NCBI RefSeq assembly: GCF_000020025.1
Contig: NC_010628.1
Coordinates: 4,830,001-4,862,000, forward strand
Origin: Nostoc punctiforme PCC 73102
GTDB lineage: Bacteria; Cyanobacteriota; Cyanobacteriia; Cyanobacteriales; Nostocaceae
Direction: 5' to 3'
Length of the DNA: 32,000 nt
Below, one piece after another: positions 7,747-23,577 of this stretch. How positions within the stretch are numbered: position 1 is the stretch's first letter; the number at the start of each line of letters is the position of its first letter. Below the pieces are notes generated by a model. It saw only the letters and a list, made by a program, of their open reading frames with translations. It was not told where the DNA came from and searched no databases. The translations under genes and the position numbers were made by a program.

Positions 7747-9138
7747 CTAGGATAGGGGTGTAGTTGTCATATTAATTAAAGATTCTTTACGCGCACGTTG
7801 GTCGGTCATTACCATCTTGACTCCACTGCCTGGGGCAAGGTTAAAACCTCTACGCTGAGGTTGCTCTGGCCGCTGATCAACTAGCGCCAAGTGATAGTGT
7901 GACACAATGGTTGCTAATGCTAGCTTTATTTCAAATAGAGCCAAAGCCTCGCCCATACAACGACGGACACCACCGCCAAAGGGCAGGAATTCATAGGGAG
8001 AAAATTGACGTTCAATAAAGCGTTCTGGTTTAAATTGCTTAGATTGGGGATATAAATTCTCGCGATGATGAGTAAGATAAATACTGGGAAGCAGTATAGT
8101 TCCAGGCTCTAAAGAATGTCCCAATAATTCCAGGGGTTCTTGCACTACCCTGGGAAACGAAAACATCGTGACGGGGTGAATTCGCAAGGTTTCATTACAG
8201 ACAGCTGTAAGATATGGTAGTCGGGAAATGCTCATAGGATCTGGGGAATCACCGAGAGTATCCAGTTCTTGAAGCAGTTTTTCACAGACTAAAGGCTGTT
8301 TGTGAATCCAGTACAATCCCCAAGCCATTGCTGTTGCAGTAGTATCGTAGCCAGCAAGTATAAGGGTTATTAACTGATCGCGCAACTCCTGATCTGTCAT
8401 CGGTTGGCCTGCTTCATCCCGACATGATATTAGTAAAGAGAGAATATCGATGCGTTCTGGATCGGCTTGTTGTTGACACTCGGCAATTTCAGTGTAGAGA
8501 AATTGATCAATTTTCTCTCGAACGCGCAAGAAATTTCCCCAAGGACTCCAAGCTCCTAAATCCTGTTGCAAGAATGAGAAAAGGAATAAACTAGAACTAA
8601 GAGGTGACTCAAAAAGCTCTAACAACAATGGCAATAGTTGCCTAAGTTTTTGAATTTTTTCTCCCTCATAAAAGCCAAAGATAGACTGTAAAATGACTTG
8701 CAGAGATATCTCTTTTGTTAGATTACGAGCTACAAAGGGCTTATTTAGTGGTAACTGGTTAAAGATTTTTTTAGACACATTACAGATTAACTGACCATAA
8801 GCTTGCATCCGCTCTCCATGAAAAGAGGGTGTCACGAGTTGTCGTTGGCGTTTGTGGCGATCGCTCTCTAGCATCAGGACTGAATTATCCCCCAAAAGAG
8901 GCTTTAAAATTCCGTTGAGTTCGCCGACAGCTGTAAACTTTTTGCGATCGTTAGTTAAAATTTCCTGAATTGCTTGGGGGTGGTTCACAAAGACCACTGT
9001 ATCCCCAAACCCGACTATCTTTCCAGTAAAAATATCAGGATATTCCTGGGCTGCATTTTCCATATAGCCTATAGGGTCACTAACCCAATGAAGCTTTTGT
9101 AGTAAAGAAGGACTTTTGAGAATATTAGGTAGTTGCAT
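7747..9138 (-). CDS. Cytochrome P450 monooxygenase (cyanobacterial CYP110-like)
   Basis: 463 aa. Heme-binding loop FGGGVRRCMG (Cys codon 7957..7959), I-helix AGYDTTAT, K-helix ETLR. Confidence 0.9.
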   Translation of the reverse strand: MQLPNILKSPSLLQKLHWVSDPIGYMENAAQEYPDIFTGKIVGFGDTVVFVNHPQAIQEILTNDRKKFTAVGELNGILKPLLGDNSVLMLESDRHKRQRQLVTPSFHGERMQAYGQLICNVSKKIFNQLPLNKPFVARNLTKEISLQVILQSIFGFYEGEKIQKLRQLLPLLLELFESPLSSSLFLFSFLQQDLGAWSPWGNFLRVREKIDQFLYTEIAECQQQADPERIDILSLLISCRDEAGQPMTDQELRDQLITLILAGYDTTATAMAWGLYWIHKQPLVCEKLLQELDTLGDSPDPMSISRLPYLTAVCNETLRIHPVTMFSFPRVVQEPLELLGHSLEPGTILLPSIYLTHHRENLYPQSKQFKPERFIERQFSPYEFLPFGGGVRRCMGEALALFEIKLALATIVSHYHLALVDQRPEQPQRRGFNLAPGSGVKMVMTDQRARKESLINMTTTPLS

Positions 9139-9311
9139 CTAGTTCTTGTTTTAAATTGTAGTGAGCTAATGGTCATTTATTCTTACTACCTTAACTTGTT
9201 AAAGTAGCAGCTTAAATATTGATTACATCCAACTTGAAAGCATGTTAATTACTATTTGTTACAAGTTCACTGCTTCACTACTTTGGCTAGTCAATCTAGA
9301 GTGGAAGTTTT

Positions 9312-10283
9312 TTATTTGAACTCTGTTAGCTCTAGCCTTTCTAAATTATGATAGCGATAAGACTCGTAACACCAATCGAGATTACCACGAATCCAACTAT
9401 GCATCCCTGATATATATTTTGTAATTTCAACATCTAATTCTTCTGAAAAAAATGAAAGAGATGATTCTACTTTTATCAAAGAATGTACTTCCTCATTATG
9501 AATTTTTACCACTTGTTCTATTGCTTTTTCTAAAGAGATTTTTTTATGATAATGCAGTACAAATATTAAATTGTGAACATCACCACTAGCTATTTCTCTG
9601 GATGCTGAAAAGATATCGTTAGACCAGGCAATAATGTCAGTTGTAATTAGTTCCAGCTTTTTGACAAGGTGATGATTTCTTAAAACATCGGGAATGATGA
9701 ACTGATTACAAAACTCAGACAATGCGAGAACAGCATAAACACCTACACTTGACCTTCGTATCATAATATAAGTGTCTAGATCGGGTACAATTCCCTTTGC
9801 GCGGTTGGTTGCTTCCTGAACACACCCATAAAAGTAGTCTTCCAAGTAGCTGATGAAGTAATTGAACCATTTTATACTAGCTCTTTGGAGAGTTCGTTTT
9901 CGTAAGTCAATTAATGCATGACTGAATAGTGTATCCTGGCTTGTAAGTTCTGCACCGTTAAGTATTTCTAAATATCTTTGGTGAAAATTATTTAATACTT
10001 CAGGTTGCTTTTTTAACTCTGATAGATCGCATTGGTCATCCCAAATAAACACCCAACTCAACCAGTCATGTGTAATCTTCAATTCTTCAAACTTGCTATC
10101 AGGGTAAGCAGATGCAGCTAAGAAAAAGAATTTGGACTTGCAAAAACGCTTATAAGCTGATTCATTAGCCAGGAGGTTGAAGCGAAGTACCCATTCAAGA
10201 GAGTACTCTTCTAAAACATCGACATACTTATTAGTCTGAGATGGAAATGGACAGTACAAACCAGGGCAAAGTAATTGATTCAT
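9312..10283 (-). CDS. Class I terpene synthase, bacterial sesquiterpene-cyclase type
   Basis: 323 aa. Asp-rich motif DDQCD (nt 10026..10040) and NSE triad NDIFSASRE (nt 9594..9620) with typical spacing. The size fits single-domain bacterial sesquiterpene synthases. Confidence 0.85.
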   Translation of the reverse strand: MNQLLCPGLYCPFPSQTNKYVDVLEEYSLEWVLRFNLLANESAYKRFCKSKFFFLAASAYPDSKFEELKITHDWLSWVFIWDDQCDLSELKKQPEVLNNFHQRYLEILNGAELTSQDTLFSHALIDLRKRTLQRASIKWFNYFISYLEDYFYGCVQEATNRAKGIVPDLDTYIMIRRSSVGVYAVLALSEFCNQFIIPDVLRNHHLVKKLELITTDIIAWSNDIFSASREIASGDVHNLIFVLHYHKKISLEKAIEQVVKIHNEEVHSLIKVESSLSFFSEELDVEITKYISGMHSWIRGNLDWCYESYRYHNLERLELTEFK

Positions 10284-10863: not shown

Positions 10864-12186
10864 ATGAATTATAAGCCATATCTACAAATGCTTAACCTCC
10901 CAGAAGATAGTTTAATTTTAGTGGTGGATGATACCACTACAAATTTAGGAATTGTCTTTGACATATTAACTAATGTTGGTTTTAAAGTTGTTACAGAAAA
11001 TGATGGCAGTAGGGCACTTAAGCAGGCTGAAGAGCAATTACCTGATTTAATTTTATTAGATGTAATGATGCCGGGAATAGATGGATTTGAAACTTGTAAA
11101 AGACTGAAAGAAAATTCAGCTACTTATGATATTCCAGTAATTTTTATGACAGCTAACTCTGATACTAATAGTAAAGTTAGGGGTCTAAATATAGGGGCGG
11201 TTGATTATATTACTAAACCTTTTAATGAAGAAGAGTTACTAGCTAGAATTAAAACCCATCTACAATTACGAAATCTTACAAAAACTTTAGAGAAACGAGT
11301 TGCAGAAAGGACAGCAGCGTTGTCTAAGGCATTAAAAGACCTACAAGAGTCTCAACTTCAGCTTGTGCAGACAGAAAAAATGTCTGCTCTTGGCCAATTA
11401 GTAGCAGGAGTTGCTCATGAAATTAATAATCCAGTTAGTTTCATTCATGGAAATCTCGGACATGCTTCAGTATATTTTCAAGACATAGCTAATATTATTA
11501 ATCTCTATCAGCAGTACTATCCAAATCCGGTACCAGAAATTCAAGAGGAAATTGCAGGGATAGATTTGAAGTATATGCTTTCCGATTTACCTAACTTAAT
11601 TTCTTCAATGAAAGAGGGTGTTCAGCGCATTCGTAATATTAGTACTAGTCTGAGAACTTTTTCTCGTGCAGATAGCGATCGCAAAGTTTCTTGCAACATT
11701 CATGATGGCATCGACAGTACAATCATGATTCTCAAACACCGTTTAAAAGCATCCGAGAATCGACCTGATATTCAAATAATTAGAGATTATGAGAATTTAC
11801 CAGATTTAGAATGCTTTATCGGACAGCTTAATCAGGTATTTATGAATTTATTAGCTAATGCTATTGATTCTTTAGAGGAGTCTAATATAGGACGAACTTA
11901 TATTGAAATTGAAGCAAATCCTAATCAAATTTTTATTCAGACTACTCTCAATGAAAACAATAATTATATTCTAATTCGGATTAAAGATAATGGGGTGGGA
12001 ATGTCGGCTGATGTCCAGCAAAAAATCTTCGACTATTTATTTACCACTAAGCCTGTTGGTCAAGGTACAGGATTAGGATTATCAATTGCTCATCAAATTG
12101 TTGTCGAAAAACATGGAGGAACTCTGGAGGTAAATTCAGAACTTGAACACGGTTCAGAATTTATCATTAAACTCCCTATTTACTAA
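10864..12186 (+). CDS. Hybrid protein: N-terminal receiver (REC) domain fused to a histidine-kinase core
   Basis: 440 aa. REC motifs VVDDTT, LLDVMMPGIDG, FMTA, TKPF. A coiled coil precedes the H-box AGVAHEINNP (His codon 11416..11418), N-box QVFMNLLANAIDSL, DNGVGM, GQGTGLGLS. Confidence 0.9.
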   Translation: MNYKPYLQMLNLPEDSLILVVDDTTTNLGIVFDILTNVGFKVVTENDGSRALKQAEEQLPDLILLDVMMPGIDGFETCKRLKENSATYDIPVIFMTANSDTNSKVRGLNIGAVDYITKPFNEEELLARIKTHLQLRNLTKTLEKRVAERTAALSKALKDLQESQLQLVQTEKMSALGQLVAGVAHEINNPVSFIHGNLGHASVYFQDIANIINLYQQYYPNPVPEIQEEIAGIDLKYMLSDLPNLISSMKEGVQRIRNISTSLRTFSRADSDRKVSCNIHDGIDSTIMILKHRLKASENRPDIQIIRDYENLPDLECFIGQLNQVFMNLLANAIDSLEESNIGRTYIEIEANPNQIFIQTTLNENNNYILIRIKDNGVGMSADVQQKIFDYLFTTKPVGQGTGLGLSIAHQIVVEKHGGTLEVNSELEHGSEFIIKLPIY

Positions 12187-12215
12187 TTATACTAAGTAAC
12201 TTTATCGGAATCTTT

Positions 12216-13367
12216 ATGTTTAAAACAGCAGTAGGCCACAGTAACGATCCAGATTCTCTGTCAGCAATTGAAGAAGTTCTTCAGCAATGTGTCAGTTCCC
12301 TTGGAGGAGATATACCAAAAGCTGGGATTCTTTTTTCTGCAATTGACTTTGAACATGCTCTCATTTTGCAGCAAATTCATCAGTTTTTTCCGGGAATTGA
12401 GTTAATTGGTGGAACAACTGATGGAGAAATTTCTTCAGTTTTAGAATTTCAGCAAGACTCAATCACCTTAATGTTATTTTGCTCAGATGAAGTTGAAATT
12501 AATGCAGGAGTTGGACGTAAGGTTTCAGTCGATCCAATTGCTGTAACTAAACAAGCTGTAGAGCAAGCCAAAGCAAAAACTACTGAAACTCCAAGGCTAT
12601 GTTTAACTCATCCAGAGAGTCTTACAATTAGTGGTGTATCTATATTGCATGGCTTAAAATTAGCTCTTGGTCAAAATGTGCCGATATTCGGCGGTTTAGC
12701 AGGCGATCAGTCCAGATATCAAAATACATATCAATTTTTTCAAACAGAAGTATTAAGTGATTCTGTACCAATTCTACTTTTTTCAGGCACAATATTGTTT
12801 TCTCATGGTGTTGCAAGTGGTTGGCATCCTATCGGTCAAATAAGCCAAGTGACTAAGGTAGATAAGAACATACTCTATGAAATAGATGGTAAACCAGCTT
12901 TAGATTTTTATCATCATTATCTAGGTTTACTTCCTCCTTCAATGGAATATCCTCTAGCAGTATTTGATCAGAATAGAGACAATTTTTATATAAGAGCGCC
13001 GATTGCTTACAATCAGGATTCTGGTAGCATCACCTTTTTTGCAGATATTCCCGATCGAGCTGTAATTCAAATTGCGGAAGCATGTTATGAAGATATTTTG
13101 GCAGCTTCTAAAGCATCATTTATGAATGCCTTAAATAATTATCCAGGTGCAGAGCCAAGTGCTGTTTTATTTTTTTCATGTGTAGCTCGTCGGCAAATAC
13201 TTGGTACGAGAGCAAAAGAAGAGTACCAGAATACGAAACTCTGTTTGACTTACCATTTACCTGGTTGTGGGTTTTATTCTTATGGAGAAATTGCTCCTAT
13301 AGATGGAATGAGCCAGACACAATTCCACAATGAAACTTTTGTAACTTTAATTTTGGGAACTCGGTAG
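12216..13367 (+). CDS. Stand-alone FIST-domain (FIST_N + FIST_C) sensory protein
   Basis: 383 aa. The N-terminus, size and motif pattern (GILFSAIDFEH..., GGTTDGEIS, FGGLAGD, GWHPIG, FFSCVARR, FYSYGEI) match my recollection of FIST proteins; this has not been checked with an HMM. The gene starts 29 nt after the preceding gene. Confidence 0.65.
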   Translation: MFKTAVGHSNDPDSLSAIEEVLQQCVSSLGGDIPKAGILFSAIDFEHALILQQIHQFFPGIELIGGTTDGEISSVLEFQQDSITLMLFCSDEVEINAGVGRKVSVDPIAVTKQAVEQAKAKTTETPRLCLTHPESLTISGVSILHGLKLALGQNVPIFGGLAGDQSRYQNTYQFFQTEVLSDSVPILLFSGTILFSHGVASGWHPIGQISQVTKVDKNILYEIDGKPALDFYHHYLGLLPPSMEYPLAVFDQNRDNFYIRAPIAYNQDSGSITFFADIPDRAVIQIAEACYEDILAASKASFMNALNNYPGAEPSAVLFFSCVARRQILGTRAKEEYQNTKLCLTYHLPGCGFYSYGEIAPIDGMSQTQFHNETFVTLILGTR

Positions 13368-13373
13368 AATTTT

Positions 13374-14420
13374 ATGGAATTTTTGGATTACCAACAAGAA
13401 AATAAGGAACTAAAGAAAGCGAATAGAATTCTTCAAAAGCAATTAGAGCGTTCTGAGGTAGACCGGGTAAAACTAGAAGAGACAAATGAGAAAAAAGAAT
13501 ATTTGCTCAGAAAAGTAATTGCTGAATTAAAGGAATATCAAAACAATCTAGAAGAAAGAAGCCAAGAACTAGAAATGATGCTTCTTAATCTTCAGATAAT
13601 GCAGAATAAGATGTCTAGTTTGGGAAGTTTGGTTGCAGATGTAGCTCATGAAATTAACAATCCAGTTGGCTTTATAGTAGGTAATCTGACTCCAGCTCAA
13701 GAGTATATTCAGAATTTGTTACATTTGATCGACCTATATCAAAAAACCTATCCTCAAGCATCTCAAGAAATTCAAGAAATCATCAAAGTAATGGATCTAG
13801 AGTATGTGCGTGAGGATTTACCTAAACTAATTTCATCAATGAGAGAAGGCACTAATCGCATTTCTAATATTAGTAGTAGCTTGCGAACTTTTTCCAGAAC
13901 AGATACAGAACAAAAAGTTATGTTTAACCTTCATGAATGTATTGACAACACTCTTTTTATTCTCAAGTATCGGTTGAAAGATAATAAGATTCGTCCTGCT
14001 ATTCAAGTAGTTAAAAATTATGACGGTGAGATTCCTCCTATACCATGCTTTCCAGGACAATTGAGTCAGGTATTTATGAATTTGTTGGCAAATGCAATTG
14101 ATGCTTTAGATGAGTCGAATTCGGGATTGAGTTTTGATGAAATTAAGGAAAGTCACAATCAAATTATAATTCATACTGCTCGAAACAAAGATGAGAATCA
14201 CGCATTGATTAAGATTCAAGATAATGGTGTAGGAATATCGCCTGATGTTCAGCAAAAAATGTTTAGTCATTTATTCACAACAAAACCTGTGGGAAAAGGA
14301 ACAGGATTAGGATTATCAATCGCTTATCAAATAATTGTTCAAAAACATAGGGGAACTCTAGAGGTAAAATCTGTGCTAGGAAAAGGTTCTGAGTTTATCA
14401 CTAGAATTCCCATCTCTTAA
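13374..14420 (+). CDS. Soluble histidine kinase with only an N-terminal coiled-coil (no recognisable sensor or TM segment)
   Basis: 348 aa, starting 6 nt after the FIST stop. H-box ADVAHEINNP (His codon 13647..13649), N-box [30 protein letters not shown]. Confidence 0.9.
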   Translation: MEFLDYQQENKELKKANRILQKQLERSEVDRVKLEETNEKKEYLLRKVIAELKEYQNNLEERSQELEMMLLNLQIMQNKMSSLGSLVADVAHEINNPVGFIVGNLTPAQEYIQNLLHLIDLYQKTYPQASQEIQEIIKVMDLEYVREDLPKLISSMREGTNRISNISSSLRTFSRTDTEQKVMFNLHECIDNTLFILKYRLKDNKIRPAIQVVKNYDGEIPPIPCFPGQLSQVFMNLLANAIDALDESNSGLSFDEIKESHNQIIIHTARNKDENHALIKIQDNGVGISPDVQQKMFSHLFTTKPVGKGTGLGLSIAYQIIVQKHRGTLEVKSVLGKGSEFITRIPIS

Positions 14421-14798
14421 AATAGTAAATCTATCAATTCTTGAAATTAAGATTATTTAAAATTAATTTTTAATATAGAATCAGGCGATTGAAACGAATA
14501 ATTTGTGGTTCATAATGGGTAATTAACTACGCTTTCAGAGCAGTAAAATTCATTTATTTAAAATAGAAAAATTTGATCCTGTTTGTAAATAAGCTGGTTT
14601 ATTTGCAAAGTGAGAATTGGTTTGAAGCTAGAAGAGACTTTGCAAAACCGAGAACTGTCGCAACGACAAGATTTAGAAATTGCGATCGCTATCACAATTT
14701 ATTAGAAACACAAGCAAGCACCAACTTCTTTAAAGAAAGGTATCAACCAGTTACTTTATGGTCATTTTGGGGAACTCTATAACTGTAGTTCCAAGATT

Positions 14799-15356
14799 GT
14801 GTTCTCAAAATTTATGACTAATGCACTTAATCATTCGATAGCCACGCTTAATGTTTCTTTAGAACGCGATATATTTTTACGTACATTAATTAGAGAATTA
14901 TCTGGCACTTTGCAGGATGTAGTTGGCTTAGAAGAAGCTTCTGGATTTATTAGTGTAGTTGGTGAAAGGATGGCTACGCAGCTTGATCAAGATTACAAAT
15001 CTGCTCTGGAAGTCTCCAAACTTTCCCGTAAGCAGGTCGCTGATGTCTTGATTGATTTAAAAAAACGAATCCAGGGCGATTTTTATGTTGTTGAGCAGGA
15101 TGATGAAAAAATTGTCTTTGGCAACCGCGTCTGCCCATTTGGGGAAAAAGTGCTTAATCGCCCTGCCATGTGTATGATGACTTCAAACGTCTTTGGGACG
15201 ATCGCAGCTAATAATCTGGGATATGCGAAAGTAGAATTGCAACAGACAATAGCACAGGGTGCTTCGGGATGTAGAGTTATTGTTTACTTAAAATTTACAG
15301 AAGAGGCAGAAGATGCAGAAGGTCGAGAATACTTTAGGGGACTAGAATCTGTGTAA
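14799..15356 (+). CDS. Small soluble three-cysteine protein, V4R / methanogen-output-domain-1-like (putative ligand or redox/metal sensor module)
   Basis: 185 aa. C-terminal pattern RVCPFGEKV...[44 protein letters not shown] resembles V4R-type folds; the family assignment is from memory only. GTG start at 14799; an alternative ATG lies at 14814. Confidence 0.45.
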
Positions 15357-15395
15357 ACTCTTCCTCACTAAAATAACCATAGGATACAAGCTTGA

Positions 15396-16811
15396 GTGCA
15401 GATATGTAAATTAGAATCGAACCCTGAAATTGGAAGCCCCATGACTCCCGAACAATTTCTTGAATTTGCCAGAGTTTTACCAGAACCTTTGCTCCTGGTG
15501 AGTGGAGAGGGTCAGTTGCTAGCGACCAATCAACCAGTAGCAGATATGCTGGGGTTACGCCGTCAGGAACTGCGGGGAAAGATGCTCTTTGAACTTGTAA
15601 CTCAGTCTACTGACGATGTTGTAAAGTACCTGCAAGCTTGTTCAAGTAGTAGAGCAATGGTTATTGGCTCCTTGACTTTACGAAAGAATGATGGACAAAC
15701 CTTAATATGTCGTAGTCAAGGAGCCGTTATTCAACCTTGGTCTCCTGAATCTTCAAGTTTAATTCTCTTACGTTTAGAAAATAGAACTTTAGCTAGCAGT
15801 AATTTTGTTCTCCTAAACCAGAAAATCGATGAGTTAGCAAAAGAAGTTCAGAGACGTAAACAAGCGGAGGAAGCGCTGTGGAAAGCTAATCAAGAGTTAG
15901 AAATTCGGGTTGAGGAACGTACAACTGCTTTACAAGAAACACTAAACGAACTACAACTTACCCAAACTCAACTTATCCAAGCTGAGAAAATGTCTAGTTT
16001 AGGTCAGATGGTTGCTGGTATTGCTCATGAAATAAATAACCCCGTCAGTTTTATTTATGGAAACCTCCACCACGCCTATAAATACACTCATGATTTACTG
16101 AAATTGGTGCAAATCTATCAACAACTTTGTCCCAATACTCCTCTAGAAATCCAACAGGAGCTAGAAGAAATAGACTTAGATTTTCTGATTCAAGATATAA
16201 CTAAACTCTTCCAGTCAATGACAGTAGGAACAGAGCGAATTCAGGAAATTGTTAAATCACTACGTAACTTTTCCAGACTGGATGAAGCAGAGCTTAAACA
16301 AGTCAATATACATGAAGGAATTGATAGTGCTTTAATGATTTTGGAGCATCGACTGCAAGCTAGGCATGAGTACCCAGAAATCAAAGTGATCAAAAAATAT
16401 AGTCAGCTACCTAATGTAACTTGCTATCCTGGTCAACTTAACCAAGTGTTTATGAATATTCTTGCTAATGCGATCGATGCACTGGAAGCGCTGGCGGTCA
16501 ATTCGCAAACAACTGACAATCAAAAGCTGACAAATAATAATCCCCAAATTCAAATCAAAACTGAGGTAATCAATGAAAAATGGATTGCGGTTAGTATTGC
16601 TGATAATGGTTTGGGAATAGATGAACAAGTTCGCTCAAAGGTATTCGATCCATTTTTCACTACCAAAACCGTGGGTAAAGGCACAGGAATAGGGCTATCT
16701 GTAAGCTATCAAATTATAGTTGAAAAACATGGCGGACAACTGAGCTGTTTTTCGGTTCCAGGAAAAGGTGCAGAATTTGTGATCAAGATACCTGTTAACT
16801 CAGTCTCATAA
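15396..16811 (+). CDS. PAS-like sensor histidine kinase
   Basis: The ORF starts at GTG 15396, but ATG 15441 (MTPEQFLEF...) is the more likely start. An N-terminal PAS-like ~120 aa and a coiled coil precede the H-box [10 protein letters not shown] (His codon 16026..16028), N-box [29 protein letters not shown]. Confidence 0.88.
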
Positions 16812-17143: not shown

Positions 17144-18748
17144 TTAAATCTTAGCGGTAGAATCAACTGAGGGTTGAGACTGACTAACCGAATCTAACTT
17201 TGGTAAAAGCAGTAGATTTTGTGCTTCTACATGACTGTTGATTGTTGCTTGCAAAAATGGCGTATTGGAGATGGAATTGTTAGCCAATGTAAACAGTGGA
17301 TTTGACAAAATCCCTGCTAGGGAAGTGGCAATTAATGTTATCACCAGCCCGACTTGCAAAGGCCTTAGTCCAGGTAAATCCCAACGCACTTGTGGATAAT
17401 TCTTCACCGCGTCGGACATTTCATGGGGTTCTTTGACTACCATCATCTTAACTACGCGAATGTAGTAGTAGATGGAGACGACGGTGGTAACTAAGCCCAG
17501 TAAGACTAACCAATAAAGTCCTGCTTGCCAACCAGCCCAGAATAAGTAAATCTTGCCGAAAAACCCAGCCAATGGTGGAATACCACCCAAGGAAAGCAGA
17601 GCAATACTCAACCCCAATGTTAGGAGTGGGTCTTTTTGATATAACCCAGAGTATTCGGCAATCTGGTCGGTTCCTGTCCGCAGTGAGAACAGGATGATGC
17701 AGGTAAAACCGCACAGGTTCATGAACAAGTAAACCAGTAGGTAAAATATCATACTGGCATACCCTGCTTGTGTCCCAGCAATCAAGCCAATCATCACAAA
17801 CCCGGCTTGGGCAATGGATGAATAAGCTAGCATTCGTTTCATGCTGGTTTGGGCTAGGGCGACTACGTTACCCAAAATCATGCTGAGAACGGCTAGAGCA
17901 GTGAAGACAAATCTCCACTCGTCTGCAACAAGAGGGAAGGCTGTTGTCAGCAAGCGGATGGCTAGGGCAAACCCAGCTGCTTTGGAACCAACAGATAAAA
18001 AGGCGATGACTGGGGTGGGAGCGCCTTCATAAACGTCTGGTGTCCACTGGTGGAAAGGTGCAGCGGAGATTTTAAAGCCAATACCTGCGATCGCAAAAAC
18101 TAGAGCAATCACTAAACCTAAAGATTGTCCCACTTTCGCTGTGGCAATGCCATTTGCGATCGCACTTAATTCAGTTTGTCCTCCAGATAATCCATACAGC
18201 AGTGATACACCGTACAAAAATACTGCTGTACTGGAAGCTCCAATTAACAAGTATTTCAGCGCCGCTTCATTGGAGCGGGGGTCACGCTTGGTATAACCTG
18301 TCAGCAAGTAAGAGGAAATACTCAGGGTTTCTAGGGAGATGAAAATCATCACCAACTCACTAGCCCCGGATAAAAACATCCCTCCTAAAGTCGCACTCAG
18401 CAAAATAGCGATGAATTCGGCTAAAGGAGTGCCGCTTTGATCGACGTAGCGAATTGACATCAGTATAGTCACAGCCGCAGACAAGGCAATGATGCCGCGA
18501 AAGACGATACTCAGGTCATCACCATTAAAGCCACCGGTAAAAGAGATGGGATTAGGATTGTCCCATTGAAAATATAGGGCGACAATGGAAGTAAATAAAC
18601 CTGCGATCGCTAGATATCCAATCCAGCGTGCGGATGTACGCCCCAAAATCAAATCAACAATCAAAACCCCCAAGAGGGTGAGAATAACAATCCCCTCTGG
18701 TAAAATCGTTCCAGCATTTAACTGGGATGCAATATTAGCAAAATCCAT
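17144..18748 (-). CDS. ndhB: NAD(P)H-quinone oxidoreductase (NDH-1) subunit 2
   Basis: A 534-aa polytopic membrane protein. The N-terminus [33 protein letters not shown]... and the rest of the sequence are characteristic of cyanobacterial/chloroplast NdhB. Confidence 0.93.
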
Positions 18749-19043
18749 GAGATGTATAGGTTTTGGCGATTAGACATTAAGGCTAACTCTGTTCACTCTA
18801 GCAAGTTTTCTAATCCCCGGACTAGCTCTTTGAACAAGAGCTTAACAGCTTGGGTGCAAATTGCGATCGCCTACGGCATACTGTTCGCGTTCGCACCAAC
18901 TTCACTAGCTTACCAGCAGGTTTCTCAGTAGTTAGGGATTCACCTAAATACTTTCCTACTTGGTTTTTAAGGTATGACCTTAATTAAATAATGATGCCGC
19001 AGCTGCGATCGCTATGTACAAAAAGCTAATTAATAATTAATAA

Positions 19044-19064
19044 GGGCACAGGATTGCTGTGCCC
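19044..19064 (-). terminator. Hairpin downstream of the 90-aa gene (terminator candidate)
   Basis: gggcacag / ctgtgccc form an 8-bp stem with a 5-nt loop. On the minus strand it is followed by an A/T-rich run (ttattaattatt), not a clean U-tract. Confidence 0.4.
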
Positions 19065-19091
19065 CTACAAGATTCATAACTTTTAACTTTA

Positions 19092-19364
19092 TTAAAAACC
19101 CACTGATGGCAGCTTGCCTTGTAGCGATTGGAATCTAGACTGAACACAGTTTGCACAATTGCAACCAACTCGATCAATAATCGGATTGGATGCTTGAATC
19201 AAGTTTACTGTCACTAGATCGGAAATTTGTTGTGTAGATGCTACAGTAACAACTTGTGTAGCATATAGAGATTTGAGGCTGGATGCGTGTACTGGATTAA
19301 CTATCAGTAGCATGGATACCAGAAATGCGGGACAAGCAAGTAAAATCAGTTTCACTATGTTCAT
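19092..19364 (-). CDS. Small secreted hypothetical protein with a CxCxxC motif
   Basis: 90 aa. N-terminal signal-peptide-like MNIVKLILLACPAFLVSMLLIVNPVHA/SS. The mature part contains GCNCANC. I do not recognise a family. Confidence 0.5.
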   Translation of the reverse strand: MNIVKLILLACPAFLVSMLLIVNPVHASSLKSLYATQVVTVASTQQISDLVTVNLIQASNPIIDRVGCNCANCVQSRFQSLQGKLPSVGF

Positions 19365-19442
19365 AATTTACACAAAAATACCTTTGGTGATACAGCATAA
19401 CCAATAAATTGACGAGGTTCAACTTTAATTACTGAGTATTAT

Positions 19443-20501
19443 TTAACTACGCCCAAATCCTTGACCTCGTAAAACCTTTGACCAAATAACCAATTCGCCT
19501 TGCTCACCACCTGCGGCCAGTAACTTGCCTTGGGGATGCCATGCTAAGGTCGAAAAACCTCCTGAGACACCTGTGATAATTTGAGATACTTCCTTGGCTT
19601 GGTTCCACAAACACAACCAGCCATCAGCAGCAGCAGAAGCGAGAAGGAAACTTTTTGGTGCAAAGGCGATCGCATTGATCGTACCTACATGATTTGTTAA
19701 TACTCGTGCTTCCCAACCTAAAGTATCATCCTCTAGTTTCTCCCACACCACAATACCTTCAACGCTGGAAGATGCCAGGATTGGCGCACCTACTTTAGTC
19801 ATAGCTTCTGACCATGCCAATTGGCGAATTTTTCCAGGGAAACCACGCATTACCCAAGGGTCGGGATTGTTCCATTCCAAAACAGTGACACTACGATCCA
19901 TGTTGCCAGAAGCCAGGAATTTACCATCGGGCGACCAAGCCATAGCTAAACTGACAGTAGTCATATCTAGGCTGTATGGTTCTTCATCCCAGTTTTGACT
20001 ATGCCAAATCTTTACTCCCTTATAACCACTAATGGCTAAGTATTGTCCGTCAATGCGCCAATCTATACCCAATACTGAAGAGTTGTCGAAATTCAGCGTC
20101 ACGACAATTTCATGAGTATCTACATCCCAGACTTGGACGTAACGCCCCAAACTAAAAGCCAGTTGGTTACTGGTGTAATTCCAAGCTAGCTTGTCAACCC
20201 ATGCGGGGGCATTTTCCAAGGTGGCGATTAATTCAGTATTCTGCCAAATTTTTACTTGTCCATCCTGTCCGCCAACAGCTAAAAATTTTCCATCTGGGGA
20301 AAATGCCAGACAGTCTACTGATTTACCGTTACCAGTTTGTAAAGTTGTGAGTTCGCCATCATTCCACAAAACTACTTCACCAGCGGCGGAAGTTGCTGCT
20401 AAAGTTTTACCTTGTGGCGACCAAGCGATCGCAGTTACATAATCTGAAAGTGTCCCCGAATAGTGTTGTTCAAATTCCTTAGATTTGGTTGTGGAGTTCA
20501 T
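19443..20501 (-). CDS. WD40-repeat beta-propeller protein (stand-alone)
   Basis: 352 aa with roughly seven to eight repeats ending in W-x motifs (VVLWND, VKIWQN, VQVWDV, VKIWHS, IVVWEK, LCLWNQ, LVIWSK), plus recurring SPDGKFLA and GG.DG segments. Confidence 0.88.
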   Translation of the reverse strand: MNSTTKSKEFEQHYSGTLSDYVTAIAWSPQGKTLAATSAAGEVVLWNDGELTTLQTGNGKSVDCLAFSPDGKFLAVGGQDGQVKIWQNTELIATLENAPAWVDKLAWNYTSNQLAFSLGRYVQVWDVDTHEIVVTLNFDNSSVLGIDWRIDGQYLAISGYKGVKIWHSQNWDEEPYSLDMTTVSLAMAWSPDGKFLASGNMDRSVTVLEWNNPDPWVMRGFPGKIRQLAWSEAMTKVGAPILASSSVEGIVVWEKLEDDTLGWEARVLTNHVGTINAIAFAPKSFLLASAAADGWLCLWNQAKEVSQIITGVSGGFSTLAWHPQGKLLAAGGEQGELVIWSKVLRGQGFGRS

Positions 20502-20516
20502 ATTTGCAAGGTGGAG

Positions 20517-20551
20517 TGGGGAATGGGGAATGGGGAATGGGGAATGGTAAA
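20517..20551 (+). repeat. Heptamer tandem repeat (TGGGGAA)x4 plus one degenerate unit; STRR-like
   Basis: tggggaatggggaatggggaatggggaatggtaaa, located in the 73-nt spacer between the COG0523 stop and the WD40 start. It is flanked by the complementary pair ggagtgg / ccactcc. Confidence 0.9.
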
Positions 20552-20574
20552 TTCCCTACTTTCCACTCCCTAAC

Positions 20575-21546
20575 TTATGCTAGACAAGCGAGAAAATCTT
20601 GCTTGAGTTGGGCTGCATCAAGGTTGCGGCCGATGAAGACTAGTTCGTTTTTGGGGGTTTCGCTAGGTTTCCAGGGGCGATCGGGTTTGCCATCAAATAT
20701 CATGTGTACCCCTTGGAATACAAATCGATTATCTTCTCCAGCAATATTTAAAATGCCTTTCATCCGAAAGATGTCTGGGCCTTGGGTACGCAGTAATTTC
20801 GAAAGCCAAGTGTTTAATTTTTCTCCATCGACTGCGCCTGCTTCTACTAAAGCCACAGAATAAACAGTTTCATCGTGTACGTGGGCATCTTCACCTAAGA
20901 AATCTGGATCGATTTCTAATGCACGATCTAAATCAAAGGCTTTTACACCTAATAAAGCATCCATTCCTAGTTCAGAATTTTGGGTGCGGTAGATTTTTGC
21001 GATCGCATTCATCGCCCGAATCCGTTTTTCTAATTCATCTAACTCTTCTGGCGCTACCAAATCTGTTTTATTAAGTAAAATTACATCGGCAAAGGCAATC
21101 TGTTCTTGGGCTTCGTCTGCATCCCAATGCTGCCAAATATGCTTGGCATCTACCACTGTCACTACCGCATCTAGAGATATTTGACTTTGCAAATCTTCAT
21201 CTACAAAAAATGTCTGAATCACTGGAGCTGGATCGGCTAATCCAGTTGTTTCAATTACTAAATGGTCAAATTTATCGCGCCGCTTCATCAAATTACCAAT
21301 GATGCGAATTAAATCGCCGCGTACTGTACAACAGATACAGCCATTATTCATTTCAAATATTTCTTCATCTGCATCGATAATCAATTGATTATCAATACCC
21401 ACTTCCCCAAATTCATTGACAATCACAGCAACTTTTTTGCCGTGTTCGTAGGTGAGGATGTGATTGAGTAGAGTCGTTTTACCTGCTCCCAAATAGCCTG
21501 TAAGAACAGTAACGGGAACTGAATTGTTGATTACGTCAGCCACCAT
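20575..21546 (-). CDS. COG0523-family (CobW/YjiA/ZigA-like) metallochaperone GTPase
   Basis: 323 aa. P-loop GYLGAGKTT, the metal-binding signature GCICCTV (CxCC), the NKTD GTPase motif, and a CobW-type C-terminal domain. Confidence 0.9.
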   Translation of the reverse strand: MVADVINNSVPVTVLTGYLGAGKTTLLNHILTYEHGKKVAVIVNEFGEVGIDNQLIIDADEEIFEMNNGCICCTVRGDLIRIIGNLMKRRDKFDHLVIETTGLADPAPVIQTFFVDEDLQSQISLDAVVTVVDAKHIWQHWDADEAQEQIAFADVILLNKTDLVAPEELDELEKRIRAMNAIAKIYRTQNSELGMDALLGVKAFDLDRALEIDPDFLGEDAHVHDETVYSVALVEAGAVDGEKLNTWLSKLLRTQGPDIFRMKGILNIAGEDNRFVFQGVHMIFDGKPDRPWKPSETPKNELVFIGRNLDAAQLKQDFLACLA

Positions 21547-21575
21547 ACTCTAAATTCCTCTTGTCTCACCTTATG

Positions 21576-21588
21576 GATAATCATTATC
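21576..21588. promoter_or_regulatory. Zur/Fur-family operator-like perfect palindrome GATAAT-C-ATTATC
   Basis: ggATAATCATTATcg context, 30-42 nt upstream of the COG0523 start codon (21546). It matches the core of the 7-1-7 TGATAATNATTATCA box used by Fur-family zinc regulators. Confidence 0.6.
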
Positions 21589-21684
21589 GCCCATAATAAA
21601 TCTTTTTCTATTTTTGTGCGAACTTACTGTTATTTTGGGTTTCAGTAAAATAATCAAATAATTTAATCACAGAACATTTTATTT

Positions 21685-21810
21685 TTATGCATCTGTAATA
21701 AGTAATAAATATTCATAAGTTGGGGTAGCTGGTAGGAATATGGCATACAAGCCGACCCACAGTGCGGCCAATACGGTTAGATTAAAGTTAGCACTCTTTG
21801 TCAAAGTCAT
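21685..21810 (-). CDS. Possible 41-aa single-TM micro-protein (below the ORF-track threshold)
   Basis: Manual translation gives ATG(21810)-MTLTKSANFNLTVLAALWVGLYAIFLPATPTYEYLLLITDA-TAA(21685), with a hydrophobic stretch LTVLAALWVGLYAIFL. I see no recognisable family and no clear RBS. Confidence 0.2.
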   Translation of the reverse strand: MTLTKSANFNLTVLAALWVGLYAIFLPATPTYEYLLLITDA

Positions 21811-21817
21811 TTTTTTA

Positions 21818-22022
21818 ACGTAGACGCGGAGCGGTGAGCCAGTCCGGTGGACGGGTTCCCCGGCATAAAGGAACTGGCGTTAGCGTAGCGGTAGCGAGGT
21901 ACGAGCGTCTACCCGTAGGGCTTGCCGCAGGCTACCACAGAGGCGCAGAGAGCGCAGAGAGAAAAAGTGCGAGAACTGCATTTGCTTCTCTCTCTGTGTC
22001 CTCTGCGCCTCTGCGGTTTAAA
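21818..22022. repeat. Cluster of GC-rich imperfect inverted repeats (MITE-like/dispersed Nostocales-type repeats)
   Basis: cagaggcgcagagagcgcagagagaa ... ttctctctctgtgtcctctgcgcctctg form a long imperfect hairpin. gtagacgc ... gcgtctac are further arms. The GC content is visibly higher than in the flanking AT-rich spacer. Confidence 0.7.
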
Positions 22023-22105
22023 AGAATTTATTAACCAATATTTTACCCTTCTTGAAAGGGCTAGTTCTATAATCCTAGTCTCGCACCAAGGTGCAATATA
22101 AAGAT

Positions 22106-23017
22106 TTAATTTTCTGAAGAGAACAAAAAATCTTGAACTACTTCTAAAACAACGGCTGGATATTCTTCATGCAATCCCAAAGAACCGGGAATAACAACAC
22201 TTCTCACTCCTGGTAATGCTACCAAAGCGTTCATTTCTTCTCGTGATTTGGGGGGGCTGGATTCCCCAATTACTACCATGAGCGGTACAGTTAAAGATTG
22301 CACAAGTTCCAGAAAATCAGATTGTTCGCGTACAGCATCGAGATTACCAGTTACAAAAGCAGCAGATGCAAATCGCGCTCCTGGTTGTTGAGTTGTCTGC
22401 CACTTCTTCTCAATGAAACTGGGTGTAATTTTAGCCGCGTCAGTAAAGACATGGCGACGGTACATCAAACTTAAGAAAGATTGGGTAGTGTTGAGTTTGT
22501 AGAGAGCTTGACCAAGTATAGGCGATCGCACTAATTCTCTCACAAAGCCAGCTATCTGTTGACTTGCCCCCATTGTTGGCAAAGGCCCGCGCCAAGTAGG
22601 AGCCAACAATACAATTTTTGAGAAAGCAGCCTGCTTGAGAGCTAATTGTAAAACGTAACTAGCAGCATGACCAGCCGCCACCACAGTAATGGGGGTATTA
22701 AAAACAGCTTTGACAAAATCTTCCAGAAAGTGCTGATATATTTCCGGTCGGTAATCCAAGCTAGGGCGAGAAGATTCACCAAATCCAGGCCAATCTATGG
22801 CTACAACTTGAAAATTGGGAGCTAGTAATTTGGCAAGTTCACCTACTTCCAAGCGAGTCGAAACACTGCTGAAAGATGGTAGTAGCAATAGCGGTGAACC
22901 TTCACCAAGGGTTTCATAAACAACGCGCAATTGCTGATTTTCCCAATTCCAGAGATATTCTTGAACTACTCCACCAAAGCCAATAGCAGCAAAGGTGGAT
23001 AATACATTGGTTGACAT
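22106..23017 (-). CDS. Alpha/beta-hydrolase-fold protein, apparently lacking the nucleophilic serine
   Basis: 303 aa. It has the typical layout (LLLLPSF..., AIDWPGFGES, C-terminal GLHEEYP His motif), but the nucleophile elbow reads AAGHAASY where G-x-S-x-G is expected. Confidence 0.75.
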   Translation of the reverse strand: MSTNVLSTFAAIGFGGVVQEYLWNWENQQLRVVYETLGEGSPLLLLPSFSSVSTRLEVGELAKLLAPNFQVVAIDWPGFGESSRPSLDYRPEIYQHFLEDFVKAVFNTPITVVAAGHAASYVLQLALKQAAFSKIVLLAPTWRGPLPTMGASQQIAGFVRELVRSPILGQALYKLNTTQSFLSLMYRRHVFTDAAKITPSFIEKKWQTTQQPGARFASAAFVTGNLDAVREQSDFLELVQSLTVPLMVVIGESSPPKSREEMNALVALPGVRSVVIPGSLGLHEEYPAVVLEVVQDFLFSSEN

Positions 23018-23048
23018 GACACTAAATTTTGGTAGTTGTACCTTATTT

Positions 23049-23132
23049 ATTTGTCATTTGTCCTTTGTCCTTTGTCCTTTGCAAATGACCAATGACCAAT
23101 GACCAATGACTAATGACCAATGAGCAATAACC
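23049..23132. repeat. Composite STRR-type heptamer array: (TTTGTCC)n followed by (AATGACC)n
   Basis: atttgtcatttgtcctttgtcctttgtcctttgc followed by aaatgaccaatgaccaatgaccaatgactaatgaccaatgagcaataacc. The TGACCAA unit is the complement of the classical STRR heptamer TTGGTCA. Confidence 0.9.
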
Positions 23133-23136
23133 AAGT

Positions 23137-23577
23137 TTAGCTAGGCAAATCTAACTTACATTCCAACGCTTTTTTTTGCATGGTTTTAAAAATGTTGTAA
23201 AATCCATTAGCGCGGGAAGGTGTCAGACTAACGTTTAAGCCTGTTTCTTGAATAAAATCTGGGGTAAGTTGGACAATTTCAGTTGGCGTTAGTCCCTGCA
23301 ATCCTTCAACTAGAAGCCCTACTAAACCTTTGGTTAACTGGGAATCAGACTCGCCCTGAAACACAACCTTACCGTCATTCAAAGTTGCTGTGATATAAAC
23401 TTGAGACACGCAACCAGGAACTTTATTTTCGGGTAATTTATCAGCTTCTGGGAACTCATTGAGCTTCTGAGCATACCAGATTAGCTGTTCGTAGCGCCGC
23501 TTCGGTTCAGAAGCGCGTTGAAAGCGCTGGACAATTTTAGCAAGCGCAGGTGGCAAAGAATCTAGAGTTGAGGACAT
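23137..23577 (-). CDS. sufE: Cysteine desulfuration (sulfur-acceptor) protein SufE
   Basis: 146 aa. It contains the conserved PGCVSQVY segment carrying the acceptor Cys and has an N-terminus typical of the SufE family. Confidence 0.85.
   Translation of the reverse strand: MSSTLDSLPPALAKIVQRFQRASEPKRRYEQLIWYAQKLNEFPEADKLPENKVPGCVSQVYITATLNDGKVVFQGESDSQLTKGLVGLLVEGLQGLTPTEIVQLTPDFIQETGLNVSLTPSRANGFYNIFKTMQKKALECKLDLPS

Follow-up and report, generated by a model that had tools for sequence, protein, structure and literature searches.

A predicted Zur-controlled COG0523 GTPase-WD40 gene pair and a neighbouring, probably separately transcribed gene for a small, predicted secreted cysteine protein in Nostoc punctiforme PCC 73102

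Introduction

On the minus strand of the Nostoc punctiforme PCC 73102 chromosome, a perfect palindrome of the Zur type stands before a gene for a COG0523-family GTPase, which is followed by a gene for a stand-alone WD40 protein and by a gene for a 90-amino-acid (aa) predicted secreted protein with the motif GCNCANC. How many of these three genes answer to the palindrome is the question that this locus raises. The DNA analysed, hereafter called the window, is a stretch of 32,000 nucleotides (nt) (contig NC_010628.1, positions 4,830,001 to 4,862,000), and positions below are counted from its first letter unless a locus label (L) is given. The initial annotation of the window had joined the three genes in one possible Zur-controlled operon, and it had placed in this region the palindrome, a GTPase with a CxCC motif, spacers of 73 and 78 nt, the 90-aa gene and a promoter-like TTGAAC-N17-TATGCT. 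The coordinates of all these elements were confirmed. In our reading, the region probably holds two transcription units as judged from sequence, a Zur-repressed GTPase-WD40 bicistron and a separately transcribed small gene.

Results

A Conserved Zur-Type Operator Precedes the GTPase Gene

The predicted operator lies at 21576..21588 (read on the minus strand from 21588 to 21576). Its core, GATAATGATTATC, is a 7-1-7 palindrome, and the corresponding 15-mer is cGATAATGATTATCc. The core spans -42 to -30 from the ATG of the GTPase gene (21546), so that 29 nt separate the end of the palindrome from the start codon. Compared with the consensus TGATAATnATTATCA, 13 of 13 core positions and 13 of 15 positions overall are matched. 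The window contains the exact pattern GATAATNATTATC a single time, while 0.01 occurrences were expected from shuffled sequences, and such a site appeared in 1 of 100 shuffles.

The locus was then compared among cyanobacteria, using a scan of one genome per species that yielded 80 loci (L001-L080). The palindrome was present at the orthologous position with 0-2 mismatches in about 57 of 79 loci, and it was perfect in 34. In these loci it stands approximately 14-33 nt before the projected start codon. They include Microcoleus, Symplocastrum, Coleofasciculus and Leptolyngbya, and the element is conserved across cyanobacterial orders. The bases that flank the palindrome diverge between species, while its sequence and position stay. 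Because only 0.01 occurrences are expected per window and about 57 of the 79 orthologous loci have the element in the same position, the palindrome is not a chance sequence.

A consensus scan placed a candidate sigma-70-type promoter of the GTPase gene at 21593..21622 on the minus strand (-35 TTCGCA, 18 nt, -10 TATTAT). The palindrome begins 4 nt past this predicted -10 element and contains an alternative one, GATAAT. In an alignment of 52 upstream sequences, the conserved blocks were a -35-like TTCGCA, a -10-like TATCAT (TATTAT in the window), the palindrome 3-4 nt further on and the Shine-Dalgarno region, and both promoter hexamers fall within conserved blocks (AGTTCGCACAAAAATA ... TTATCAT). 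With this arrangement, the operator would cover the transcription start of the GTPase gene, a geometry that would fit repression by occlusion of the start.

The palindrome also agrees with the cyanobacterial sites collected by Haas et al. (2009; Additional file 5, PMC2770081), among which the entry "Nostoc PCC 7120 all1751, COG0523-5-WD40" has the same operator. Locus L031 carries a 23-mer that equals the all1751 site letter for letter and has the same -46 geometry, and the window operator differs from the published all1751 site only outside the 13-base-pair core. A review (PMC6103462, Table 3, citing Napolitano 2012) counts all1751 as one of the COG0523 genes in the Zur regulon of Anabaena. 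The Zur-type operator proposed in the initial annotation is thus upheld by its expected position, by its conservation across orders and by the place of all1751 in the Zur regulon.

The GTPase Is a COG0523 Protein, Probably of Subfamily 5

The gene behind the operator (20575..21546, minus strand) encodes a COG0523-family G3E GTPase of 323 aa, a putative zinc metallochaperone. Its translation matches the Pfam families cobW (PF02492, 1.6e-63, residues 11-186) and CobW_C (PF07683, 9e-26, residues 230-322) and contains the motifs GYLGAGKT (residues 17-24), C70-I-C72-C73 (CxCC), ETTG (residues 99-102) and NKTD. All the features that define COG0523 proteins were therefore found in it, namely Walker A, the switch II ExxG, NKxD, CxCC and the CobW_C domain. 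Its best solved-structure relative is YjiA of E. coli (8.9e-63), and the GTPases of the 80 cyanobacterial species are 82-99% identical to it, those of Nostoc being the closest.

Haas et al. (2009, PMC2770081) described clustering with WD40 genes for prokaryotic members of subfamily 5, the ZNG group, and in the window a WD40 gene lies 73 nt downstream. On the basis of the identical operator 23-mer and geometry in L031, together with the listing of Npun_R3841 of Nostoc punctiforme in Additional file 3 of the same study, we infer that the window GTPase is an ortholog of all1751 and Npun_R3841, in subfamily 5 and the ZNG cluster. A search of a plasmid collection with the locus returned only a short GTPase match in Priestia, which is irrelevant here.

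Upstream of the GTPase gene, the order sufE, alpha/beta hydrolase, COG0523 (22106-23577 in the window for the upstream genes) recurs in genomes that range from Nostoc to Argonema, Floridaenema and Calothrix NIES-3974. Several of them have the stop of the hydrolase gene only about 50-60 nt before the COG0523 start, which places the Zur box directly after the hydrolase gene.

The WD40 Gene Is the Operon Partner of the GTPase Gene

The second gene (19443..20501, minus strand) encodes a stand-alone WD40 beta-propeller of 352 aa, with four stretches matching Pfam WD40 (PF00400, 2.6e-40). In the profile search the protein also matched many other propeller families, and its best solved match was a Nostoc WD-40 repeat protein (2ymu, 2.3e-71). 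The N-terminus, MNSTTKSKEFEQHYSG, has no hydrophobic signal and no recognisable signal peptide. Among 47 diverse orthologs, 92 positions were at least 95% conserved. These are mostly structural W, G and D residues; H271, C297 and H322 are conserved as well, and no obvious metal site was recognised among the ligand-like residues of the family. An AztD-like identity of the protein was also considered and rejected, given the missing signal peptide and the absence of any AztD chain among the Protein Data Bank (PDB) matches at E<=1e-15.

The initial annotation had suggested examining the synteny of the two genes in other cyanobacteria. A WD40 ortholog stands directly 3' of the GTPase gene on the same strand in 68 of the 74 loci whose sequence extends far enough. 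The two open reading frames are projected to overlap by a few bases in five genomes, all non-heterocystous (L054, L061, L069, L070 and L078); these overlaps, like the spacer lengths given for other loci, are projected from tblastn coordinates. Since adjacency in 68 of 74 loci and apparent reading-frame overlap form an operon signature, the comparative evidence indicates that the WD40 gene is the second gene of the GTPase operon. Its co-regulation had been put forward as new; the partnership holds, and the novelty does not, for it was already described by Haas et al. (2009, PMC2770081).

The 73-nt spacer between the two genes (20502..20574, minus strand) carries four tandem CCCCATT heptamers, which resemble the STRR-like repeats of Nostoc. 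It folds with -22.2 kcal/mol (z -3.4), the heptamers pairing with the upstream GGGAGTGG...GGGAAT. As the hairpin lacks a U tract, it is not a canonical terminator. Across the orthologous loci the spacer is projected to range from -13 to 439 nt in length, so that it is not conserved as such.

The presumed WD40 ortholog of PCC 7120, All1750 (COG category R, without a signal peptide), was detected in two studies of the Anabaena exoproteome (PMC10957091, supplements; PMC4390845, table). Both this detection and its unchanged level in a zur mutant (see Discussion) are puzzling, as the protein would be expected in the cytoplasm and under Zur control. Our literature search found no study of the role of a WD40 partner of a ZNG-type GTPase.

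The Small Gene Is Real and Encodes a Member of a Family of Predicted Secreted Proteins

The third gene (19092..19364, minus strand) begins 78 nt after the WD40 gene and encodes the 90-aa predicted secreted protein with GCNCANC. Substitutions between homologs are concentrated at third codon positions (301, 241 and 521 at the first, second and third positions, respectively), and the open reading frame is a real gene. We found 84 homolog clusters, mostly from Nostocales, all of them hypothetical or unnamed and conserved in length. Neither the window protein nor these clusters matched any family in Pfam or NCBIfam.

The protein has a signal-peptide-like N-terminus ending in VHA|SS, a variable and fast-evolving linker and a C-terminal module, NPIxDxxGCxCxxC...LQGKLP. 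By inspection, the N-terminus consists of MNIVK, a hydrophobic core of 17 residues and NP(A/V)xA|S, and it is conserved in 35 of 35 aligned homologs. The invariant residues are C67, C69, C72, L80, Q81, G82, L84 and P85. Its three invariant cysteines hint that this presumably exported protein may carry out thiol chemistry or bind metal in an extracytoplasmic compartment. An AlphaFold2 model built with 35 homologs was unusable, with a mean predicted local distance difference test score of 53 and a predicted template modelling score of 0.19.

Two other identities were rejected. Bacterial metallothioneins of the SmtA/BmtA type have a cysteine-rich cluster, with about 9 Cys plus His, that forms a Zn4 site. 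The small protein has three Cys (C-x-C-x-x-C) and no His after the predicted cleavage site. A lipoprotein, as LLAC might imply, was dismissed because that Cys is Phe in many homologs.

The small gene is present in 39 of 66 informative loci. Where it follows the WD40 gene, the median gap is 78 nt, and the order extends as far as Argonema, with a gap of 43 nt. In L028, L029, L030, L032 and L076, the small gene lies 300-1000 nt from the WD40 gene. It is absent from the Nostoc loci L007, L014 and L018, whose GTPases are 97-98% identical to that of the window and in which COG0523-WD40 is intact. In the Anabaena/Dolichospermum clade, it resides behind murT, on a different contig from COG0523-WD40.

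Promoter-Like and Terminator-Like Elements Accompany the Small Gene

Before the small gene, the minus strand carries a promoter-like block at 19394..19422, with -35 TTGAAC (19422..19417), a 17-nt spacer and -10 TATGCT (19399..19394). Of the 43 upstream regions aligned with that of the window, most retain the block GTTGAA(C/G)-N17-TATGCTGTATCA, which is conserved better than the surrounding spacer. It is kept in the relocated copies of Anabaena UHCC 0187 behind murT (L081-L083). It is absent from the Dolichospermum copy L084 and is also divergent in L039, L066 and L070. There was no Zur box before the small gene in the relocated copies inspected (L081 and L084), and none was apparent in the upstream alignment.

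After the small gene lies a terminator-like hairpin at 19040..19068 on the minus strand, with a 12-pair stem (6 GC) and the T-rich tail TAATTATTAA. It folds with -18.9 kcal/mol (z -3.8), and its features are those of an intrinsic terminator. A similar hairpin, with the core CACAGCAA..CTGTG and both stem arms differing, follows the relocated copies in L081 and L084. No significant structure was found in the 78-nt spacer between the WD40 and small genes (z -0.66). The initial annotation had placed the first convincing hairpin after the third gene. That is where the canonical terminator-like site was indeed found, but a stable hairpin without a U tract already occurs between the GTPase and WD40 genes.

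Since the promoter-like block and the hairpin travel with the relocated small gene of Anabaena UHCC 0187, and no Zur box stands before it there, two units are the most economical reading. From its sequence context, the small gene is most likely a separate transcription unit that would be reached from the Zur promoter only by read-through. The proposed three-gene operon is accordingly doubtful and probably wrong, as the promoter-like block is conserved across genera and retained in the relocated UHCC 0187 copies. The caveat attached to that proposal, that the small gene may be independently transcribed, gives the better reading, because the block is conserved and relocates with the gene.

The small gene has its -10 region, in most orthologs, within a perfect 5-3-5 palindrome, TGCTG-TAT-CAGCA, of which the window (19381-19396) has CACCA as the second arm. 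This palindrome could be an operator for some regulator or a hairpin at the 5' end of the RNA.

The Genes Lie in a Variable Zinc Neighbourhood

In Cylindrospermum PCC 7417, sufE, the alpha/beta hydrolase gene, COG0523, WD40, the small gene and a ZnuA-family gene follow each other on one strand, and Calothrix PCC 7507 is similar. Among the 39 genome loci with a small gene, 15 (15 of L001-L080) have the ZnuA-family lipoprotein gene 3' of it. This gene also lies 3' of every relocated small-gene copy with enough downstream sequence, and there both genes moved together. Examples of the ZnuA-family gene after the small gene are L085 5352-6413, L087 5888-6877, L081 5399-6382 and L084 2368-3342. The best NCBIfam score of its product was for AztC, with 232.7 bits, which is below the cut-off of 350. 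A good Zur-like box precedes this gene in only 4 of 24 loci. By motif reading, the Anabaena/Dolichospermum copies of the ZnuA-family protein have lost canonical His ligands (for example, PLTY or PINY for DPHxY).

On the other side of the locus, sister strains have a second Zur-type box approximately 200-260 nt upstream of the COG0523 start (L013, L015, L017, L021, L024, L039 and L047). It is a perfect TGATAATGATTATCA in L013, L015 and L017 and has one mismatch in L021, L024, L039 and L047. Beyond this box, L013 carries a divergently transcribed gene of the all3515 (ZepA) family at 4741-5691 on the minus strand, matching the "Zur-repressed PEP-CTERM protein" model of NCBIfam (NF040463, 320 bits). 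L013 is the one second-box locus that was examined for this gene.

The window has neither a ZnuA-family gene, ndhB standing in its place, nor a zepA-like gene, whose place is taken by a GC-rich inverted repeat. Taken together, the gene contents indicate that the neighbourhood is a variable zinc island, of which the small, presumably exported Cys protein is a persistent member. The inverted repeat (21934-22017), flanked by the alpha/beta-hydrolase gene on one side and the promoter of COG0523 on the other, has 32-nt arms that are 84% complementary and a 20-nt loop. It resembles a small mobile element or repeat element. An Rfam scan of 18700-22200 detected no known RNA element and gave only sub-threshold matches to miRNA precursors, on this long inverted repeat.

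Two stretches farther away in the window (7747-10283 and 10864-16811) hold a minus-strand gene pair for a terpene synthase and a cytochrome P450 and a plus-strand gene cluster. The cluster encodes a response-regulator/histidine-kinase hybrid, a FIST-domain protein, two more histidine kinases and a MetOD1-domain protein.

Discussion

Proposed Organization of the Locus

The proposed organization would work as follows. The first unit would be a Zur-repressed bicistron of the COG0523 subfamily-5 GTPase and the WD40 protein, orthologous to all1751-all1750 of Anabaena PCC 7120. When zinc is sufficient, a Zn-Zur dimer would sit on the 7-1-7 palindrome, cover the transcription start and block RNA polymerase. 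Under zinc limitation, Zur would leave the DNA, and the GTPase, with its CxCC metal site, and the WD40 propeller would be made together. By analogy with ZNG1 and METAP1, the propeller is most likely the protein-interaction partner of the GTPase, an adaptor or a client, in a GTP-dependent delivery of zinc in the cytoplasm. The second unit would be the small gene, with a sigma-70-type promoter-like block and a hairpin terminator of its own, yielding a small exported protein. Some zinc-dependent read-through into this unit may occur, though it would not be the main mode of its expression. In this scheme, the sequence anatomy, conservation and synteny come from this analysis and the Zur control of all1751 from the literature, and we infer where transcription starts, that Zur occludes the start, what the WD40 protein does, and how the small protein is exported and functions.

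Several points weigh against this organization. Zur binding and the starts and ends of the transcripts in Nostoc punctiforme are predictions from sequence, and in Bacillus the same 7-1-7 sequence would count as a Fur box. From Nostoc to Argonema and Mastigocoleus, the small gene has retained its place after the WD40 gene, an arrangement that would also suit co-transcription, and since no terminator separates these two genes, some read-through from the Zur promoter is possible. The Zur control of all1751 is known via a review table (PMC6103462). Finally, the exoproteome level of All1750 was unchanged in a zur mutant (log2 fold change -0.24, not significant; PMC10957091, supplements), although the exoproteome level of a protein without a signal peptide is a poor proxy for its expression.

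Alternative Explanations

The nearest competitor is a single Zur-controlled tricistron of COG0523, WD40 and the small gene that would end at the hairpin at 19040-19068, with TTGAAC-N17-TATGCT minor or non-functional. The unstructured spacer between the WD40 and small genes would suit it, as would the position of the sole canonical terminator-like site after the third gene and the recurrence of the WD40-then-small order in 39 of 66 informative loci, out to Argonema. What speaks against it is the behaviour of the small gene elsewhere. The promoter-like block is conserved beyond its surroundings and stays with the gene in L081-L083, outside the operon; the Anabaena/Dolichospermum small gene is found on another contig and has no Zur box upstream in L081 and L084; and the gene stands well apart from the WD40 gene in five loci and is absent from three Nostoc loci. 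We therefore regard the tricistron as unlikely.

Two further explanations concern the palindrome itself. If another paralog of the Fur family, such as FurA (iron) or PerR/FurC, bound it in place of Zur, iron or oxidative stress would govern the operon. The 7-1-7 consensus TGATAATnATTATCA is indeed the classical Fur consensus in other bacteria, and sufE, a gene of Fe-S assembly, is syntenic two genes upstream in many loci. The introduction of the ZepA paper also reports cross-talk of Anabaena Zur/FurB with FurA (PMC10957091). Nevertheless, all1751 stands among the Anabaena Zur targets in the review (PMC6103462), sister strains have the gene for the all3515-family "Zur-repressed PEP-CTERM protein" with the same box beside the operon, ZnuA-family genes cluster at the locus, and, according to the ZepA paper, the motif in cyanobacteria agrees with the Zur consensus of Anabaena (PMC10957091). 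Control by another Fur paralog is, on balance, very improbable. As for an AT-rich sequence arisen by chance and without a regulatory role, the local intergenic DNA is AT-rich and one shuffle in 100 did give such a site, but the same sequence at the same position before the ortholog in dozens of species from several orders, between divergent flanks, effectively refutes it. The two-unit organization with Zur as the regulator is thus the one that we prefer.

A Possible Role of the Small Protein

In many Nostocales, the gene of the family with the invariant GCxCxxC...LQGxLP sits between COG0523-WD40 and the binding-protein gene, and in the Anabaena/Dolichospermum clade it has relocated with the latter. 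From this comes the idea that the small protein acts with the binding protein, as a periplasmic zinc-handling or thiol factor that would work with the ZnuA/AztC-like protein and not with the GTPase, a functional analogue of ZinT or AztD. We consider this pairing speculative and rather improbable. If it applied, the small gene of the window would be what remains of a larger zinc island, and the Zur promoter would contribute some zinc-dependent read-through.

The uncharacterised small CxCxxC family and its recurrent neighbourhood of zinc genes, with the link to ZnuA/AztC-like proteins, constitute the only new lead from this locus: the presumably exported protein is unannotated and conserved, and its gene stands repeatedly beside zinc-uptake genes. 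In addition, the tight linkage of the GTPase and WD40 genes, with its apparent overlaps, offers a good system for asking what a WD40 protein does with a ZNG-type GTPase in bacteria.

Comparison With Known Systems

The COG0523 architecture with CxCC is common to the window GTPase, eukaryotic ZNG1 (CBWD/Zng1) and plastid ZNG2 (PMC10642216). ZNG1 is a zinc-regulated GTPase that metalates METAP1, and ZNG1 and ZNG2 are induced or required under zinc deficiency (PMC10642216). Haas et al. (2009, PMC2770081) placed all1751 in subfamily 5 together with human CBWD1/2, yeast YNR029c and At1g26520. Unlike ZNG1, the window GTPase has no N-terminal METAP1-docking extension: it starts with MVADVINNSVPVTVLTG, and its P-loop begins at residue 17. 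Such an extension is characteristic of the cytosolic ZNG homologs only (PMC10642216). Moreover, the partner gene beside it encodes a WD40 propeller and not a methionine aminopeptidase.

With the AztD/AztC periplasmic zinc chaperone system of Paracoccus (PMC6689063), the shared trait is the zinc-related setting in which genes for a beta-propeller and an AztC-like binding protein accompany a COG0523 gene. The propeller of the window, however, is a canonical WD40 protein without a recognisable signal peptide, whereas AztD is periplasmic and lies outside the WD40 family.

In prokaryotes, COG0523 subfamily 5 clusters with WD40-repeat genes, and several of its members have a Zur site upstream (Haas et al., 2009; PMC2770081). 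COG0523-5-WD40 behind Zur sites was reported there also from Prochlorococcus, Cyanothece and alpha-proteobacteria (znuCBA-COG0523-5-WD40). The alpha-proteobacterial znuCBA-COG0523-5-WD40(-sapB) and the Prochlorococcus znuA-COG0523-5-WD40 share with the present locus the Zur site, the GTPase and the WD40 gene in a predicted operon, together with a link to ZnuA-type proteins. In contrast to those clusters, the binding-protein gene of Nostocales lies downstream, after the small secreted-protein gene, and it is absent from the window.

The nearest known system is all1751-all1750 of PCC 7120, together with Npun_R3841 of Nostoc punctiforme. It has the same gene pair in the same order, the same operator core and the same distance to the start, and nothing essential is different; in this comparison, the GTPases of the orthologous loci share 89-99% identity with that of the window. 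Differences concern the surroundings, as the clade of the window has ndhB downstream and the GC-rich inverted repeat upstream, while in other Nostocales the downstream gene belongs to the ZnuA family or the upstream one is zepA-like. The operon of Zur box, COG0523-5 and WD40 is an already known system, catalogued in 2009, and the window contributes another ortholog of it.

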